Shown in pieces: positions 2,885 to 61,270 of a stretch of DNA of 64,000 nucleotides. The DNA lies in the NCBI GenBank assembly GCA_030265395.1, contig JARFYF010000001.1, forward strand, positions 46,909,250 through 46,973,249, read 5' to 3'. The stretch is from Rhina ancylostomus. Its lineage: Eukaryota. The position numbers and the translations under genes were made by a program. Below the pieces are notes generated by a model. It did not search any database. It was not told the DNA's origin and saw only the letters and a program-made list of their open reading frames with translations. Numbering within the stretch: position 1 is the stretch's first letter; every line of letters begins with the position of its first letter.

Positions 2885-3680
2885 TGCACATGGATAAATT
2901 CCATAATTTAATCCTGGTATGTGCGAGGTGATACACTTTGGGAGGACTAATAATTGTAGGACACACACAATGAACAACAGGGGCTTAAGGAGCATTGAAA
3001 ATGGAGAGATGTCAATGTACAAATCTAAGGATCCTGACGTGGCAGTACATGTGGATAAGCTGGTGAAGAAGGCATATAGGATACTTACTTGCATTAGCCA
3101 AGGCATGTAATATAAGAGCATGGAGGTTATGATAGAACTTCATAAACTATTCGTTAGGCTACAGCTGGAGTACTATGTACAGCTCTGGTTGCTCCACTGT
3201 CCAAAGGATGTGGTTGTACTGGAAGTGATGCAGAAGAGGTTCACCAGGATGTTGTTTGGATGGAGTATATCAGTTGAGAGGAAAGATTGGATAGGCTGAG
3301 TTTGTTTTGCTTGGAGCATAAGAGGCTGAGGGGAAGGCCCGTTAAAGATATACAAAGTTATGATGGGTATTGATAGTGGTGGATTGTAGGAAACTTTTCT
3401 CATAGCAGAGGTATCTAAAACCAGAGGGCATAGGTTTAGGGTAAGGGATAAGACATTTCGAGAGGATCTGAGGAAGGACTTTTTCATCCAGTGAGAGTGG
3501 ATGGAATCTGGAACACACTGGCTAAGTGGGTAATGGAGGCAGATAGTCTCATTGTAATCAGTATCAAGAAAGCTAAGGACCAACTGCTGTTAAATGGGAT
3601 TAGTGGAAATAGATGCTTGATGCTTGACATGGTCATGACAGGCTGAAGGGCCTGTTTTGTGCTTCATGGTTCTATGACTC
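2885..3680 (+). mobile_element. CR1-like LINE 3' fragment, decayed
   Basis: CEVIHFGRTN and VDKLVKKAY motifs, CR1-type ORF2 C-terminus and 3' tail ctgaagggcctgttt..ttctatgactc. Confidence 0.85.
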
Positions 3681-15355: not shown

Positions 15356-16050
15356 CTGTGACAATAAAATAAATAATATTAGAGGTCAAGAACATAAGAA
15401 ACAATGGAAGACCATTTAAGTCCGTTAATTTTTCTTCTCTGAACCAAGCCATTGAATCTAAAACCACACGTGGACAATCTCCATTTGTAAAGATTATAGC
15501 ATCTGTTCATGCATCCCTCATGTTCAGGAGAACTGGTTAAACAAATGTTCATTTAATTTGGTGTTTATTCAATCCACCTATCAATTATTAGTGACTCAGT
15601 TTGTTTTAGACTTTCACACATGCTTTGCAAAAGTCAAAGGTCCAAAATACTCTGGATGTCAGGTGCCAGCATATCTAACCTCCTTCTCAAGCTCTAGGCG
15701 CACTGTCAAGTCCAGTGGCAAAGCAATGTCATGGAGAAATGAGAGTAGTCACTTTGCAACTGTCCTCTGAATTCTTTGCGAGGGCTAGATGGTGTGCAAA
15801 GGAGACCCCATTTCTTTGAATCAACACTGTTAAGAAAATTAATAAAGGGAAATCTTTGAATTATTTTATTTTAATGTTTTAAGTACTCTACATGAATTTT
15901 AATTTTTGTTTAACTCTTTAAAGTTATTAAATCTATTTGACTAATTTTTAAATGTCTCTTTCAATCAGAAATATATAGTTCTGATATACTGTTATACAGA
16001 AATATACAGTTATAATCAGAAATATATGGTCTTGGACCATAGCTAGCTGC

Positions 16051-16289
16051 CATGGTTCTGAGTTCTGGTCCTCAATTTGGCTCCATTAATGCCTTGTTGT
16101 CCAGCACATGGATTCCATGCTGNNNNNNNNNNNNNNNNNNNNNNNNNNNNNNNNNNNNNNNNNNNNNNNNNNNNNNNNNNNNNNNNNNNNNNNNNNNNNN
16201 NNNNNNNNNNNNNNNNNNNNNNTGGAATCCATGTGCTGGACAACAAGGCATTAATGGAGCCAAATTGAGGACCAGAACTCAGAACCATG
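16051..16289. repeat. 67-bp perfect inverted repeat flanking a 100-N gap
   Basis: 16051-16117 is the exact reverse complement of 16223-16289; probably an assembly artefact. Confidence 0.85.
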
Positions 16290-17181
16290 ACAATGGGTTG
16301 TCAGGGTATTCAGAGAGGGAGGGGCTGAACATTAAAATCAGTTGTTTTCCTCACCCTTTAGGATGCATTAATTTTACAAAATAAATTGCTAAGAATACAA
16401 AGTAATATGGCACAGCTTTACAAAGGAGCAACTGGTACTTTCTGAACATTGTCCAGTGGTCAAATTCAAATAATCATTAAATTTAAGGATAGATGAAGTA
16501 ATAGAGGGAGCAACATGGAAAGAAATAGAATGAATTGAGGACAAATGAAATAAGTAAAAAAGAAGAGATTTAAAGAAAGACTGGATTAATAGAGTGATTG
16601 AAAAAATAAACAGTAAGCAAACAGAAAGGAAACAAAAAATGTTTGGAAATTTCTGAGCAATTTATCGCCTGCATGTAATTTGGTAGTTTCAACTGGACAA
16701 ATAAAAATCTCTTTCTGAGCCAACAAGATTGAATTTTATGTAACTATAAATCACCCAATTTCAAATGTCCTCACAACATGGAACACTAGTCCAAATGTCT
16801 GGTGTAAGATTATTTCATATGCATGGACTGATCCATCAATTTCCTTACATGCATGGAGAGTGAAGTTAAGTTCCCACTTTTGCGAGGCTGGTGCAAATCA
16901 TCCAACAATTTGTGGCTTCAACAACTAATGCTGTATCACTGCCCTGCCACAAAGCCCAGAAATTTTATGCACCAAAAATGCTGGACACTAAAAATTCAAA
17001 ACTTGAGCCCTAAATTTAAGACTTTCTTTATTGTATAGCCATTCCAGAAAAAATATTATCTTTTATTTACATTATCTTAAAACATCCTTCCAAAAATTGA
17101 AGTAACTCAAAACATCTAAAGCTGTTAACTTTTAGAAATAACTGAATGCTTAACATATATGATAGCAATTTTTAAACCAAC

Positions 17182-38199: not shown

Positions 38200-38298
38200 C
38201 TGGAAAATGAAAAAAATACTTAAATTATGATTTTCAATTATCTCATTGCAAAATATTTTAAGAAAATAATTACAAAACTAAAGTATAATGAATTTTAC

Positions 38299-42198: not shown

Positions 42199-42346
42199 CT
42201 GCAGAACAAAGAAAAGTAAATTGAATGGTTTCTTAGAAAACAGTTCCAAACATTTTAAGAATTGAATTTAATACAAAATCTGAAAAATGAAATGACAAAC
42301 TTTATGCATTAGCTTTATTCGCAATTACTGTAAAAAATTCACTCAC

Positions 42347-42391
42347 CATATTTGTTCGAATAAACGCAAGACCATTTTCTGTTTAAAGATT
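42347..42391 (-). other. Candidate 45-nt in-frame cassette micro-exon
   Basis: tttttcctgctcag|AATCT..AATATG|gtgagt; phase 1-1, no stop. Confidence 0.35.
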
Positions 42392-42837
42392 CTGAGCAGG
42401 AAAAATCGCTCGTTCTTTGTTCTTTCTTCAGACTGTCGCAATTTCTTGTCAAAAGTCATATTAGAATGTATATTTTGAAAAAAGCATAAAGTGATCTCAT
42501 GACAGAATTGAGTTATTTTTTTAAAAAGTAAAATCTGTCTCTGTAGTGATTTGGGGATATCTAGATTATTACAAATTCTTACCTGGCTTGCAGACAGCAG
42601 AATAAACGCCCTTTCTGCTCCTTTTGGTAGTAGATACATTTTACAGCCAGTTTGACAAGTATAGATTTGAATTTTAATACACAGAGATAAATTCTTTTAC
42701 AATTCTTCATAAATTGCATGAGAAGGCGTTTATTCGAACTAATACAGTTGCTAGATTAACAATGTTAAGCAAATAAAGCCAGCATTCATGAACACATACT
42801 ACTATCTGCAAGCCAGTATAAGTGTATGAGAGTCAAT

Positions 42838-42845
42838 TGACGTCA
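42838..42845. promoter_or_regulatory. CRE palindrome TGACGTCA (motif only)
   Basis: exact consensus next to a locally CpG-rich intron segment. Confidence 0.25.
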
Positions 42846-43415
42846 TGTAAATGAAAGAAAATGAATACACAAATGAATGATATTCTAATCAAATATCCTT
42901 TAACAAAATATTTGCTGAAATTTCCTAAAATAAGAGGTGCAATTCTTATTGTTAAGCTCATTAGGAACTTGGAAGAACAGAGCTCTGACAAAACTACAGA
43001 ACCATGAAATAAAATATTAATATGTACACTTCTAGGATTCAGTCATTAAACTTTAAATTGTTGACAGTACATTCAAACACTTCTCATTGTATCCTTCACA
43101 TTGTATACCCATATATTCTATTTGTGGTATGTCAATTTCTGAAATTCTGTTTAATTACAGGGAATTAACAATGGTAAAATGCAAAGTTTCTGTAAAAGAA
43201 ATATTGATGTTAAAAGGATTTTTCTGTGACAATGACAATGATAACCACAAATCTGATTTGTAAATAAATGAGATTGACACAAACAACATGCAATTTTGAC
43301 ATTTCATAATGTAAAACTTATCAAGATGGCAAAATACTGAAGTAGATGGATATAGTTGGGTCAAAGTATTTCAAAGAGTATTTAGCAATTCATCAAATAA
43401 TAATAAAAACGTTAC

Positions 43416-43466
43416 CTCTCACTTCCATTTCAATTTGCTGTTCAATCTTGTCTTGAATATTTTTCT
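43416..43466 (-). CDS. TTN: Titin small exon (about human exon 47)
   Basis: 51 nt; EKNIQDKIEQQIEMEVR vs human ..ERIEQEIEMEMK; cag|..|gtaacg. Confidence 0.93.
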
Positions 43467-43887
43467 CTGCAGTAAATGAAAATGAATAAAATTGAATATA
43501 AGTTCAGAAATGTAACATTGCTTTTCCAATTTGTAAATACAAATGCAAAAAAGAAAACTGAATTATGAAATATGTAAAAACATACAAAACATGCATGCAA
43601 ATAAGAAAAAATATATCTGTTGATTGTGATTTTCAGAATTTATAACCAAACAACTGGTTGATTGAATCACAAAGCTAATTCAGACAACCCAGGATTTTGT
43701 AAAAAAATCTGTCTTGCTCTGTATCAAAACATCAAACATGCCTCACATGCCTAATCCATTTTAATGTAAAAAGGAGTGCAATAATCCACAGCTAAACAAG
43801 ATGACTCGGCAAAGATTCTTTCCATGAACTGTGCTGAGATGCATGATCGAGTCACATGGGGAAGGATCAAAGCATGCAATTGCCAAC

Positions 43888-44167
43888 CTGTCACACTAAG
43901 TAGAGTGTTGCACGCTGTTTCTCCAGCAGAATTAACTGCTTTGCATGTATAAGTACCACTGTGACTCTGGCTGACTTTCTGTAACTTTAAACTGCATCCT
44001 TTGAAGAACTTTTCTCAACACATGCTGGCTAGGATCACTTCTGGCGGATGGGATTTGATCACTACAGGGGGGATAGCTAGTATCTGCAGCTGATTTTGGT
44101 AACACAGAGCAAGTGGTGAGAAGACTGTGAGGCTTTTCATTTCTGTTTAGTGATCTGATTGAAACGA
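43888..44167 (-). pseudogene. 3' part of a decayed titin exon (unique sequence, frameshift, C-terminal half of an Ig)
   Basis: KGCSLKLQKVSQSHSGTYTCKAVNSAGETACNTLLSVT then G|GTTGGC phase-1 donor. Confidence 0.75.
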
Positions 44168-45005
44168 ATGAATGGCAGGGCTTGAGGGAGCATTGAGGAA
44201 CAGAGAGACCTTGGTTAGAGTCCAGTGATCCGAAGATGACGGCTCAGGTAATTGTTAAATGGTTTATTACTATCACCTGTATAGAGATACTGTGATAAGC
44301 TTTTGTTTGTGTGCCATGCATTCTGTTATTGTTTTACCTTGTACTACCTCAATGCACTGTTGTAACGTAAGAATGGTATGCAAGACAAGTTTTTCACTGT
44401 ACCTTGGTACATGTGACAATATAAAACCAATATATCTATTTACGTAAGTGCATCAAGGCAGTAAAAAGAAAAACAGAATACAGAATATAGGGTTACAGGT
44501 ACAGCGCAAGTATAAAGCAGGTAGTGTTGAGTTGCCTTCTGAAACTGCTGCAGGCTTTGTAATGAAGTACTCTAAGTGTATTGTTGTGGAAGGAGTTCTG
44601 GGAATTTGCTCCATTGATGAAGGAAAAGGGTCATGTTTCTATGTCTGGTTTGGTGTGTGATTTGAATGCACATCTTCGGGTGAAAGTGGCTAATGCTTCA
44701 AGATAGTAAAAAGAAAACAGAATGCAGAATGTATTGTTGCAACTACAGAGAAAGTGCAGTGCAGGCAGACGAATAAAGAGCAAGGGCCATGGTGAGGTAG
44801 ACTGAGAGATCAAGAGTTCATCAGAAGGCATATGAGATACTTGCTTTTATTACCTGGGACATAGAATATAAAAGCAGGGAGGTTATGGAACAACTTTATA
44901 AAACATTGGTTAGGCCACAGCTGGAGAAATGTGTACAGTTCTGGAAGGATGTGTTTGTACTGGGAAGGGTGCAGAGAAGATTCACCAGGATGTCACCTGG
45001 AATAG
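44168..45005 (+). mobile_element. CR1 fragment interrupted by short interspersed elements
   Basis: CR1-like at 44168-44235 and 44826-45005 (ggttaggccacagctggag); other repeats in between. Confidence 0.7.
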
Positions 45006-45009
45006 ATCT

Positions 45010-45410
45010 TTCCAGTTATGCAACTGGATCCTTGACTTCCCGACCAACAGACCACAATCAGTGAGGACAGGCAGCAACACCTCCAGCACAATTATTCTTA
45101 CCACTGGTGTCCCACAAGACTGCATCCTCAGCCCTCTACTCTACTCCCTATACACTCATGACTGCGTGGCCAGATTCTGCTCTAATTCCATCTACGAATC
45201 AGCAGATACCACTGTCGTGGGCCCTATCTCAAATAACTATGAGTCAGAGTACAGGACGGAGATAGAGAGCTTACTGACATGGTGTCATGACAACAACCTT
45301 TGCCACAATGTCAGCAAAACAAAAGAGCTGGTCATTGACTTCAGGAAGGGGGGCAGTGCACATGCTCCTGTCTACATCAAAGGTGCTGAGGTTGAGAGGG
45401 TTGAGAGCTT
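45010..45410 (+). mobile_element. Rex1/Babar-like LINE RT fragment
   Basis: [58 protein letters not shown]. Confidence 0.85.
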
Positions 45411-45510
45411 NNNNNNNNNNNNNNNNNNNNNNNNNNNNNNNNNNNNNNNNNNNNNNNNNNNNNNNNNNNNNNNNNNNNNNNNNNNNNNNNNNNNNNNNNN
45501 NNNNNNNNNN

Positions 45511-45663
45511 GTCTTTTGGTTGAAGAAGGTGGTGGGCTTGATGATTTCTTTAGAACTTCTGATTTGCTATCAGATGTGACATGAGGCCTTTGTTCAATTT
45601 TAGAGATATCTGAACTGCTATCAGTGGGAATTTTAGCACCTGTTTGGGATTTTGTTTCTTCGG
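45511..45663 (-). pseudogene. 5' part of an unannotated titin-like exon running into gap
   Basis: attttattcttgcatag| phase 1; open frame AEETKSQTGAKIPTDSSSDISKIEQRPHVTSDSKSEVLKKSSSPPPSSTKR. Confidence 0.6.
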
Positions 45664-45958
45664 CTATGCAAGAATAAAATTAGGATAAGTGTTAAGTGAT
45701 TTAGCAATTTCAGCAAAGTAAATACTTGAAAAATTTATAAAAGCCCGAAGTAATGTTTTCAATAATTCATGCACACTAGTGTGATGAAATGTCTAGTGTT
45801 AAAGTTTGTATAAATCACTAACTAACATCTTTAACAAAACATATTACTGTTAATAGGTAAATTCAGGATCTTCTTAAATAGATACTAAACTTAATTTGGG
45901 AAAGAAACAATGAAGTGGATGAATCAGGATGCTGTCTTTAAATAAAATTATAAACAAC

Positions 45959-46843
45959 CACCTTCTACTATAAGTACAGCAGTAGTCTTCATTTCTCCAC
46001 CTTCATTTCTTGCAGTACAGCTATACTGTCCCTGATCTTCTATGTGCACATTGAGGATTGTGAGAGACATAACATTTCCATTCCGAGATATCTTCAGTCT
46101 TCCTGATTCTTCCAATCTTCTGCTTCGGTGACTCCATATAATCTCTGAAACTGCTTCTCCACTAAAAGAACAGATGAACTGTGCCATCTGACCAGCTTTG
46201 ACTCTTAGATCACTAAGTTCAAGTAGAATCATGGGGACTTCAAAGGCAGGTTTGGCTGCAGCAACAGTTACTTTTGCTTCACATTTAGCCTCACCATGAG
46301 GATTCACAGCTTTACATCTATAAACACCTGTGTCCTCTTCATGGATATGTTGTATAATTATCTCAGATGAAGTTAAAGCTTCAGCTTCTGTTATAGTTAC
46401 AATTTTTATTCTTTTAACTTCCACAAGTTCTTGATCTTCTTTGTACCATATTATTTCAGGTTTTGGGAGTGCTAAAATTTGACATTTTAGAGACATTGTT
46501 TCACCTAACATAACTGTGATGTTTTCCATATCTTGTAGGAACTTTGGTGCAACTTGAGAGCCACTTCTAATTGCTTCAGTCTTGCTAACTTTTTGGGATT
46601 CTTCCCAGCTTTCAGAAGAAACAGTCTTGCTAGATGAAGTCACGGAGATACTTTCAAACATCTGAACATTGTATGTATGTTCTTGCTGTAAAGTGATTTC
46701 CTTTGTATAGTTCTTTGTATGCTTTAAGGTCATAGGAGACTCCATATGCATTTCTGATACTTCAAAAGTCTTTGAAGCGATGGATTCCGCTACAGCTTTT
46801 CCAGAAGTTATGCTCTGACTATCTATGCTTTGCACTTTGTAAT
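45959..46843 (-). CDS. TTN: Titin Novex-2-like exon with two Ig domains
   Basis: VQSIDSQS, YNVQMFESIS, EESGRLKISRNGNV..DQGQYSC..TTAVLIVEG; alternative acceptor 46834 and donor 45962 possible. Confidence 0.9.
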
Positions 46844-48151
46844 CTGAGTAACAAAAGACAAAATATTAATCATGATATTAAATCATGACTGACAAAATAA
46901 AGAAAGCAATAGCTCATGTTGTCCAACGGGCAACCCAGCATGCTGGCCACATGCTAAAGAAGTGCAATTCACTTGATTGAGGAAAACACCCATGTCCTTT
47001 TCCTCAAAAAACATCTGCAAAATTCTTTGGGAGAAAATGGCATTCATTTGAACAAAATGATGATTTAGTTCTTCTCTTGCAAATACCCAAGATGCAGATG
47101 AATTAATGCAAGTTTATGTATCAAGATGAAAGGTTTTCTTACTAGTGCATTAATATCATCAGATTTTAGAATAATGAGGTGTTGTGGTGTGCAATCAAAA
47201 ATAGAAATAGTCAGTAATAAAATGTATTCTTGGAAATGCTGTTTGCTTGATCTTATTTACTGTGAGTTCAGCAATTCATGGTGTTTCTCCAAGACCTTTT
47301 AATTTGCTTTGTATGTATACTGTCCAGAGTGTACTATACTTTGCAGAAATTGCTCAACCAATAATTATAATGGTGACATCTTTCCTAGAATTATCAAAAT
47401 AAAGTTCTAGGTCTTCTCTTGGATCTACCATATGACCATCTGGTTTCTGAATGATGTTCATAATAATGAGCCAAAATACCAACTTTAACATAATTCTGGC
47501 TCTGTTTGTTCAAGTTATTTTAGGTGCCTTTGACATGGACTATGAAAATTTTGACAATTGATCCAGTTTCCTGGAATAGTATTAAAACTTAAACGACTAC
47601 AAGAGGAGACCTAGCTTTTAACTCAAGAACATTCAAACAAAATGATTAAAACAATGTTTTATTGCTGTAGATATTACAGTTATAACATATTAACTTGTTT
47701 CAACAAAAAAATCTGCATTCAGAAACAAAGTATAGTCATGTTATAGTGGAATTCCACAGCGTGCACAGCAGGTGGCCTCTGTTGTTTACCTTAGAAGTGG
47801 ATGGAAGAACTGGCCATGAGAGGTACTACAGATGTGCAAACAATGTGGCTGGGTGAGTTGCTTGATGAAGTCTACAATTGATGAAAAAGCTTCAAGAAAT
47901 GGTAGGTACTAAGATAAGGTAGAATGGTGTCCAGCAGTACAAGCACAAAATACACATGCTTTCACAAGAAGTGAACATTGCTGGCCCAATTGTGCTGATA
48001 AGTAGAAATGAATGCCGCAGGCAATGATAAACATTACTGAATTAAGAAAACAACCACAAGCAGAAAGGTGCTTCAAAATTCATATCAGCAAAACAGAAAT
48101 GTAAATATAATGTAAGATGTAGCAAATAAAAGCAGAATAATGTTAAATTAC

Positions 48152-48340
48152 CTTCCAGTTTTAACTCAGCAGTACATGACATTTGTCCAGCAGAGTTGGA
48201 TGCGACACATTTATATGTTCCTTCATCCTCTGGGTAGGCTTCAGCAATTTCCAACTGGTACGTGTCCTCAAACTGAACCATTTTGAAAAATCTTGATTGT
48301 TTGATCTCCTTTTCTTTACTATACCATGTAACCTTTAGAT
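48152..48340 (-). CDS. TTN: Titin exon (about human exon 44)
   Basis: 189 nt; DLKVTWYSK..QFEDTYQLEIAEAYPEDEGTY. Confidence 0.96.
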
Positions 48341-49069
48341 CTGTGTTTAGAAAAAAAATGCATCAGAAACATTGTCACAAACTGACCATAGATCCAAAAC
48401 CTAGTAACAAAAATAATAAAATTAAGTCAAATAATGTAACTGTATAACACTTAATATTTGATATAATGATGCTGAAATTGAAATGAACTCCATTATAAAA
48501 ATCAGTTAAGGAGGTGAACTGTTTATATACAAGTGAGGACAGAAGGCAGCACCCACTAAGAAGTGCAACAGGAATCCATGGGCTAAGTGCTGAGTTAATA
48601 GAAGAAGGAACTTTAAAAAGTGATCTCAATCAGCTGAGGACATGGGGGGATCCAAAGAAACAGAGCCATGTTGAAATCTTAAATTCATAATCTGTCTTAA
48701 GAAGATTTACTTATTGGTTCAAGAAGACTCTCGACTAAATGCCCTCTGTGAATTAAAGGGGATGAAATCAACTAAACAGCGCAATATCAATATTCAGAGG
48801 TTCAATTTCCATTAAACAGAAAGCAAAATACAGTTGATGCTGGAAATCTGAAATAATAACAGAAAATGCTAGAAATTCAGCAGGGAATCATTCTTGTTAA
48901 TTTCTGCACTGACAAAGTGCAAACTGCAAACATTGCTATATTTTCATGGAGGAATGATGGTGAACACTTAAAAACTGGAATGTCCATGCCAATGAAGCTT
49001 AATTTTATCTACATGAGGTGGGTATAAAAGTACTATTTGAAGAAAACCGGATGAGTTTTTCCAATTGAC

Positions 49070-60411: not shown

Positions 60412-61270
60412 ATTAAAACAGAAGGTGTTGAAAACACACAAAAGCCAGACATCATTTGTGCAAAGAAAAACAGTTACCATTTCAGGTCCATAATGTTTCC
60501 ATGAAATTGGGAAAAAGAGTGAAAGAAGTTAGTTTTAAGTTGCAGAGAAGGTGGGGAGGGATGGAGAGGACAAATGAAATATCTGTGATAGGGTGAGGGG
60601 ACCCTTGCTACGAGATACTCTGGCCATAGGTATAGGCCGTAGAGATACTCTGGTCAAATTAGTTAATGGGGACAGTTATAGGATGACAACACAGACAAAA
60701 AGTGCAATGTGTTGCAGATAGCAAGACTGTGGGACATGGCCAGTAAGACTCCAGAGAGATAAACTGAGCCAATGTCACAAATGGATAACTTACTGGAAAA
60801 ATATAGATAGAGAAAGTGTTACCTAAAGATGGAGAATTTGATATAGAGTATTGGTATTGGTTTATTATTGTCACTTGTACCGAGGTACAGTGAAAAGTTT
60901 GTGATACAAACTGATCATACAGGTCAACTCATTACACAATGCAGTTACATTGAGTTAGTCTACAACATGCCCAAAGTAAAGATGATATGTGCTGGACCGT
61001 NNNNNNNNNNAAAAAGGTGAGTATGGGAGTGGTATGGAGAATTAAACTGGCAGGCAACTGAAAGCTCCAGGTTGCCCCTGGAGACAGAACACAGGTGCTC
61101 CACAAAACAGTCAATCAATCTGCATTTGGAATCTCCAGTATAAAGGAGAACACATTATGAAGACTGAATGCAGTAAACTAGATTGGAAGAAGAGAAAATG
61201 AATTGCTACTTCACCTGGAAAGACTGGTTCGGTACCTGGATGGTGAGAAGTGAAGAGGTGAAACAATAGG
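60412..61270 (-). mobile_element. Penelope-like element fragment with nested insert
   Basis: reverse strand SSLLHS..PLYWRF decayed GIY-YIG region; 3' part homologous to 62200-62400. Confidence 0.7.

Follow-up and report, generated by a model that had tools for sequence, protein, structure and literature searches.

A fourth Novex-region exon of titin, apparently unnamed and conserved from sharks to birds, is interrupted in the assembly of Rhina ancylostomus

The titin locus of Rhina ancylostomus contains, between Novex-2 and exon 47, two halves of one titin coding unit, hereafter called exon X, which a sevengill shark and birds carry unbroken and which is distinct from Novex-1. Exon X is likely an ancient, alternatively spliced cassette exon, and it has probably been inactivated recently in this lineage by a retroelement-derived block located inside it; we hold this reading as a whole with moderate confidence. 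That the exon exists in other species is, in our judgement, very probable, and this point is independent of its fate in this genome. Exon X appears to be a fourth exon of the Novex region that has not been named before; its conservation extends from sharks to birds, and in this assembly it is interrupted. It adds to a known gene and does not represent a new kind of system.

The window, that is the whole stretch of 64,000 nucleotides analysed here, is an elasmobranch-like titin (TTN) locus lying on the minus strand and covering the proximal and middle I-band part; segments of Heptranchias perlo match its TTN sequence at 79-94% identity. With Table 1 of PMC5852582 as the yardstick, exon sizes of 285, 126, 189 and 51 nt in the window equal or fit those of exons 42, 43, 44 and 47. 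Novex-2 was identified by alignment to bird proteins encoded at the chicken and human exon-46 primers of the same paper. Exon X falls between exons 44 and 49, and an intron of 298 nt separates it from Novex-2; phase-1 ends are common to exons 44, 46 and 47. The features of this region are collected in the table.

Table. Features of the Novex region around exon X, in window coordinates
Feature	Position	Strand	Remarks
Exon 44 orthologue	48152..48340	-	189 nt; size equals Table 1 of PMC5852582
Novex-1 (exon 45), decayed relic	47258..47451	-	three frameshifts and one stop
Novex-2 orthologue (exon 46)	45962..46843	-	882 nt, open, two Ig domains
Exon X, 5' half	45511..45663	-	phase-1 acceptor TAG, 50 open codons of S/K/E/P-rich linker, then gap
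Assembly gap	45411..45510		100 N, unsized; may hold the missing ~254 nt
Non-LTR reverse transcriptase fragment	45022..45410	+	antisense to TTN, runs into gap
CR1-like fragment, decayed, right part	44795..45013	+	nhmmer match to window copy 3066-3260
Nested block inside CR1-like fragment	44251..44794		about 545 nt
CR1-like fragment, left part	44126..44250	+	antisense strand yields part of the frame first read as resuming the exon
Stretch next to 3' half	43998..44125		neither missing exon part nor clearly CR1-like
Exon X, 3' half	43888..43997	-	Ig strands E-F-G, CysF and CysG, phase-1 donor G/GTTGGC
Intron, exon X to exon 47	43467..43887	-	421 nt; five GCATG, three of them TGCATG, first at +10
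Exon 47 orthologue	43416..43466	-	51 nt; size within Table 1 of PMC5852582

Several other features of the locus were observed. The first Ig (46550-46257) of the shark Novex-2 has no counterpart in the aligned records from birds and other non-sharks. The Novex-3-like region, also on the minus strand, consists of two open frames (about 42198-38299 and 38199-34709, the second ending in TAA) separated by a ~99-nt GT-AG intron at 38200-38298, with about 7.4 kb of coding sequence in all; human exon 48 (Novex-3) is listed as a single exon of 6455 nt (PMC5852582). Between exon 47 and this region, an 86-nt AG..GT candidate on the minus strand (42347-42432) may correspond to exon 48' (85 or 100 nt), which shifts the frame; its GTGAGT donor is strong, and another AG lies 12 nt upstream of its own. 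In the middle I-band part, six-Ig blocks repeated at 122-21335 (minus strand) cluster by position in a tree of Ig domains, a position-wise grouping of such blocks that has been described for cartilaginous fish (PMC12241362). Finally, inverted copies at 16048-16117 and 16223-16292 (69/70 identical) flank a 100-N gap; they are likely a scaffolding artefact, which suggests that the unsized gaps of this assembly should not be trusted.

The sevengill shark H. perlo carries exon X intact: its protein P0001, found with the Novex-2 linker as the query (1 match among 94 candidate proteins), contains it as residues 328-500 (173 residues), directly after Novex-2. The first-pass annotation had proposed that Novex-2 and exon 47 are separated by a further exon of the Novex region, possibly intact in other species, and had tied this proposal to the existence of a contiguous exon in orthologous loci; P0001, which joins both halves of the window in one frame, bears it out. 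The length of exon X, about 516 nt, is derived from this protein, through which alone the H. perlo unit is known, and an intron inside the unit is possible there.

The 5' half is identical to P0001 residues 328-378 at 40 of 50 positions. Its phase-1 acceptor at 45663, which opens the S/K/E/P-rich frame into the gap, had been correctly recognised; it had also been called good, and with 3.7 bits, a score that 7 of the 29 titin acceptors of the window do not reach, it is adequate rather than strong. The 3' half is identical to P0001 residues 464-499 at 34 of 36 positions, and 43996-43889 matches positions 55-90 of Pfam I-set (E 5.6e-7), in agreement with the initial assignment of this piece to Ig strands E-G ending at a phase-1 GT donor. 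Acceptor and donor together give exon X frame-keeping, phase 1-1 ends. Neither half contains a stop or a frameshift (0 in 262 nt, 153+109), and the exon, first described as decayed, is interrupted instead. The frameshift that had been placed inside it is unneeded, since homology simply restarts at 43997/43996.

In this assembly the reading frame of exon X is not intact, as 1413 readable bases of foreign DNA lie between the gap and the 3' half, and about 254 nt are unseen. Ig strands A-D had been reported as missing, and P0001 residues 379-463, which contain them, were indeed not found by tblastn in the whole readable window; the corresponding sequence is either in the gap or deleted. When these residues were compared with the insert, the best score of a frameshift-aware protein alignment was reached by 3 of 100 shuffles, and at base level the score was reached by 21 of 150 shuffles on the minus strand and 24 of 150 on the plus strand. 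Short look-alikes in the insert (EKP-S, PA--EK and inverted G-I-A runs) were rejected, being at shuffle level or marginal (3/100). The open frame at 44156-44020, previously thought to resume the exon, does not belong to it: the missing residues do not align convincingly there, and part of it falls within 44126-44259, which is antisense CR1-like sequence.

Homologues of exon X were found well beyond the sharks, rays and chimaeras in which the first-pass annotation had expected it, as the sevengill shark lies within this range, and birds, a tortoise and other sauropsid-like records lie outside. With the 173-residue unit as the query, 11 of 1030 longer candidate proteins matched, namely P0001, seven generic Ig proteins and three named birds, in which 100% of the 173 residues are covered at 56-57% identity. 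Among 119 candidates of similar length, six matched: a model from the tortoise Gopherus, which carries part of exon X, and five single-ORF records (two bird-like, one turtle-like and two other sauropsid-like). All these homologues are gene predictions or ORFs. The searches took proteins of up to 2000 residues sharing 5-mers with the query, and because of this ceiling and of the need for shared 5-mers they do not bear on absence in fish, amphibians or mammals. The bird protein P0002 contains Novex-1, Novex-2 and then exon X; its Novex-1 was identified by the chicken exon-45 primer, which encodes its start. The same order is found in the non-bird record P0014, obtained from a search of representatives (3 matches), which stops about 50 residues into exon X and is only 45-51% identical to the birds. 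This stop may be due to decay or may be the end of the gene model. The Novex-2 of P0014 shares an S-Q-A-V-A run with the human exon-46 primer and differs beside it, and P0014 may be of the mammalian side, where it would mark the decay of exon X.

Exon X encodes a unique linker of about 80 residues, with a conserved YYPDVVP motif, followed by an I-set Ig domain (the intact domain of the shark matches Pfam I-set with an E of 2.6e-17). A predicted model has the I-set fold (pLDDT 76.7), and its best structural match is titin I67-I69 (TM 0.82). The shark-bird identity of this Ig is 66-68% over 92 residues, compared to 49/90 (54%) for the Novex-2 Ig, which argues that selection has held the domain. 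It is rich in cysteines: six of the nine full X domains have seven and three have six, whereas none of the other Igs of the window (n=50) has more than six. Cysteines in strands B, F and G are present in 9/9 full domains and align with those of I67 and I69 in PDB 3B43; there are up to four further ones, two of which, in the region of strands D and E, are kept in 9/9. In the triad domains I67 and I69, a buried B-G disulfide isomerises on unfolding and tunes extension (PMC5766482). Exon X shares with these I-band Igs the CysB/CysF/CysG positions and the fold, but it has up to four additional cysteines and is known here from its sequence and a predicted model. A PDB sequence search returned generic Igs and no close relative, and only generic I-set clusters were matched in the ESM Atlas.

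The initial finding of retroelement DNA between the halves is upheld by a Pfam RVT_1 match and by matches to the window's own copies, on which, rather than on family consensus sequences, our classification of the insert is based; the labels Rex1/Babar and CR1 reflect motif likeness. RVT_1 is matched at about 45022-45330 (+) with an E of 8.5e-6, below the gathering score, in a reverse transcriptase fragment that we take from its motifs to be Rex1/Babar-like. The split fragment, presumably of the CR1 family, matches over 44822-45001 the window copy at 3066-3260 (nhmmer E 1e-24; 141/179 identical, 79%), and 44126-44259 (+) aligns to two CR1-like window copies with scores reached by 0 of 60 shuffles each, one of them narrowly (44 against a maximum of 42). 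The nested block shares a piece with 60853-60959 and contains two diverged ~80-nt repeats (44445-44524 and 44691-44768; 61/80 identical), and AGGTA, present at both 44246-44250 and 44795-44799, may be a target duplication. Tail-like repeats are also part of the insert. Attempts to align 43998-44125 as part of a CR1-like element failed, and the A/TC junction at 43996/43997, which resembles a Helitron end, is too short to count. No Rfam match was obtained at gathering level over 42200-48400.

The likeliest fate of exon X in this lineage is a recent inactivation by a composite block or a rearrangement. The halves are free of disablements, whereas the Novex-1 relic has 4 in ~195 nt (Poisson P about 0.005), and neither the splice sites nor the GCATG motifs have been lost. 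The insert itself looks old, as its CR1-like part has diverged to 79% from its nearest copy and it contains the nested block, stops and frameshifts. A simple insertion in place thus fits poorly with an old-looking insert beside fresh-looking halves. The exon could alternatively be intact in the animal, the short-read assembly having either mis-joined this stretch or shown one allele of it. This is the alternative we take most seriously, although we consider it unlikely. It would be consistent with an unsized gap that starts inside coding sequence, with the 11 assembly gaps of the window, with the undamaged halves, splice sites and GCATG cluster, and with the contact between old-looking repeat DNA and a fresh-looking exon. 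However, the junction at 43997 is gap-free and in unique sequence, and no shared repeat was found on its two sides.

Where it is intact, exon X would be a muscle-regulated, frame-neutral cassette. GCAUG sites downstream of an exon enhance its inclusion, and such a cluster is found after the exon X donor: the five GCATG in 421 nt were reached by 1 of 1000 shuffles and the three TGCATG by 14 of 1000, in a test chosen after the motifs had been seen. The first ~120 nt of this intron are conserved with H. perlo. Read through past the donor, the window, the shark and eight sauropsid records all give G-W-Q-[LM]-H, which is compatible with a kept TGCATG at +10, the motif in the homologues being deduced from peptides and not from their DNA. 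Rbfox proteins act through GCAUG (PMC11874969). A donor matrix, built on 8 donors, scored known donors poorly and was excluded as evidence. We propose that this symmetric, phase 1-1 exon would add the linker, unstructured, and one I-set Ig to the proximal I-band part of titin, near the Z-disc end of the spring, without shifting the frame. As the motifs suggest, RBFOX-type proteins bound to the GCAUG cluster after the weak-looking donor could promote its inclusion in muscle, and the CysB/CysF/CysG triad with up to four more cysteines could act as an oxidation-sensitive unfolding element; both the RBFOX control and the redox function are read from sequence. Skipping would keep the frame because of the phase-1 ends of exons 44, 46 and 47, so that the loss of exon X would be tolerated, like that of Novex-1 here. 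A point against our reading is that in chicken the expected exon 46-49 product of 532 bp, which has no room for exon X, was seen at a low level, and the accessible text of PMC5852582 mentions no longer product; intron 46, listed as 1898 nt (PMC5852582), does have room for 516 nt.

It is also conceivable, if rather improbable, that exon X is mainly a terminal exon where it is intact, reading through its GT to a stop and ending a short, Novex-3-like isoform. All full gene models and ORFs do end by read-through, the tail is open and alignable for 20-50 residues in eight sauropsid records, truncated transcripts retaining intron 46 are reported in chicken and frog (PMC5852582), and one ATTAAA is present at 43765. 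Conservation of the tail stops, however, after five residues when sharks are compared with sauropsids, the window and H. perlo differ in it by a frameshift, and predicted models of fragmented titin genes end by read-through anyway. Terminal use would moreover be compatible with use as a cassette rather than exclusive of it.

Less probable still is that exon X works here as two exons, through an intron either gained or ancestral in elasmobranchs, in which case the gap would hold a donor together with the missing 254 nt, and the repeats would be ordinary intron filling. This would account for old, nested repeats beside undecayed halves, and the Novex-3 region does contain a short intron where human has one exon. 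The Gopherus model (P0020) leaves exon X after the leucine at its residue 93, which corresponds to P0001 residue 463 and to the break point in the window; this exit may be a coincidence or a cryptic donor. On the other hand, a frame without stops leads into the 3' half from no more than three AGs, each of them weak (-5.1, -7.9 and -0.6 bits); among the 29 true acceptors only 2 score below -0.6 bits. The best of them would replace a leucine kept in 9/9 homologues, and five sauropsid-like ORFs run unbroken through the residue-463 point.

We find an ancient death of the exon very unlikely; its fresh look would then be due to a slow rate of change in shark DNA, and the repeats would have piled up in place. 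Nested and decayed repeats would fit a long neutral history. In the comparison with H. perlo at the residue level, the 3' half (34/36) does not significantly exceed the intron after the donor (22/28; Fisher p 0.12), and the 5' half, at 80%, does not surpass this intron in conservation either; both points also count against our main reading. Against an old death stands the Novex-1 relic: only 1.6 kb away, it is heavily decayed and no longer matches the H. perlo piece significantly at base level, which shows that neutral DNA does decay here. The relic reaches scores of 74 and 69 against two Novex-1 references, with shuffle maxima of 34 (n=60) and 31 (n=30), and other Ig halves score 26-38 against its region. 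In H. perlo, residues 15-33 of P0001 fit Novex-1 when the reading is shifted by one base (scores 67 and 65, each reached by 0 of 150 shuffles), and no likeness to Novex-1 is seen in the other frame of this piece; Novex-1 thus seems to be frameshifted there too, in the genome or in the assembly. Together, the relic and this frameshift suggest an elasmobranch loss of the Novex exon that is reported to be the most conserved in bony vertebrates.

Exon X is not an orthologue of Novex-1, as it neither lies upstream of Novex-2 nor groups with exon 45. A tree of 66 Ig rows places all nine full X domains together in a clade (100/99) and Novex-1 in a separate one (100/98); its Novex-1 rows have 67 residues, one Novex-2 row is mis-cut (15% filled), the half Ig of the window is left out, and its deeper forks are unsupported. 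The first-pass suggestion of a displaced Novex-1 relative, or a duplicated one, is scarcely credible in spite of the resemblance of strands F-G to bird Novex-1 (16/25), as Novex-1 and exon X coexist in order in P0002 and P0014, the 36 residues of the 3' half score 47.8 bits against bird X and less against an unrelated window Ig (40.8) and Novex-1 (38.9), the tree gives exon X no supported sister, and the real Novex-1 relic sits in its own, normal place.

Novex-1 (exon 45) and Novex-2 (exon 46) resemble exon X in belonging to the exon 44-47 region, in having phase 1-1 ends and in encoding a linker followed by an I-set Ig. Exon X differs from them by its third position, after Novex-2, its own Ig clade, its longer linker with YYPDVVP and its 6-7 cysteines. 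Novex-3 (exon 48) and exon 48' are alternative exons of the same cluster, but both come after exon 47; Novex-3 is several kb long and ends in a stop, and exon 48' (85 or 100 nt) shifts the frame. Exon X is not in the comparison of exons 42-50 of PMC5852582, which took human as the reference, as far as its accessible text goes, and its absence from human is taken from the published exon list. For the connectin gene of the elephant shark (PMC12241362), a cartilaginous fish titin, the accessible text names only three such exons, Novex-I, II and III. Novex-I is reported there to be expressed in skeletal muscle, in contrast to the Novex-1 relic of the window, the correspondence of the exon names being drawn from the text alone. 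In the accessible parts of both papers, no exon between 46 and 47 is mentioned. No earlier description of exon X was found in the literature searched, a scope outside which most subscription papers fall, including those on the chicken and zebrafish connectin genes, and no titin paper under 'novex-4/IV' was among the matches listed. Automatic database models named 'myosin light chain kinase-like', 'twitchin-like' and 'V-set ... protein 10-like' already hold exon X sequence; they are misnamed TTN fragments, none of which marks it as a separate titin exon, and these entries can now be corrected.

Titin exons have been catalogued against human, and this may be why exon X has had no name so far. 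Its Ig is held at 66-68% identity between shark and birds, yet the exon is off the human-based map, which is thus incomplete for other vertebrates. Tentatively, and with slightly less than even confidence, we propose that a fourth exon of the Novex region was already present in the titin of the jawed-vertebrate ancestor, carrying an Ig richer in cysteines than any other of this I-band part and an RBFOX element that has persisted for some 450 million years, that sauropsids still use it, that the human line has lost it and that elasmobranchs are shedding Novex cassettes one by one. If this shedding is true, Novex-1 would be frameshifted in the sevengill shark and decayed here, where exon X would be freshly broken. 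Exon X provides a testable module for the question of what the Novex cassettes do, and the natural losses of Novex-1 and exon X in different lineages would be knock-outs bearing on the role of these cassettes.
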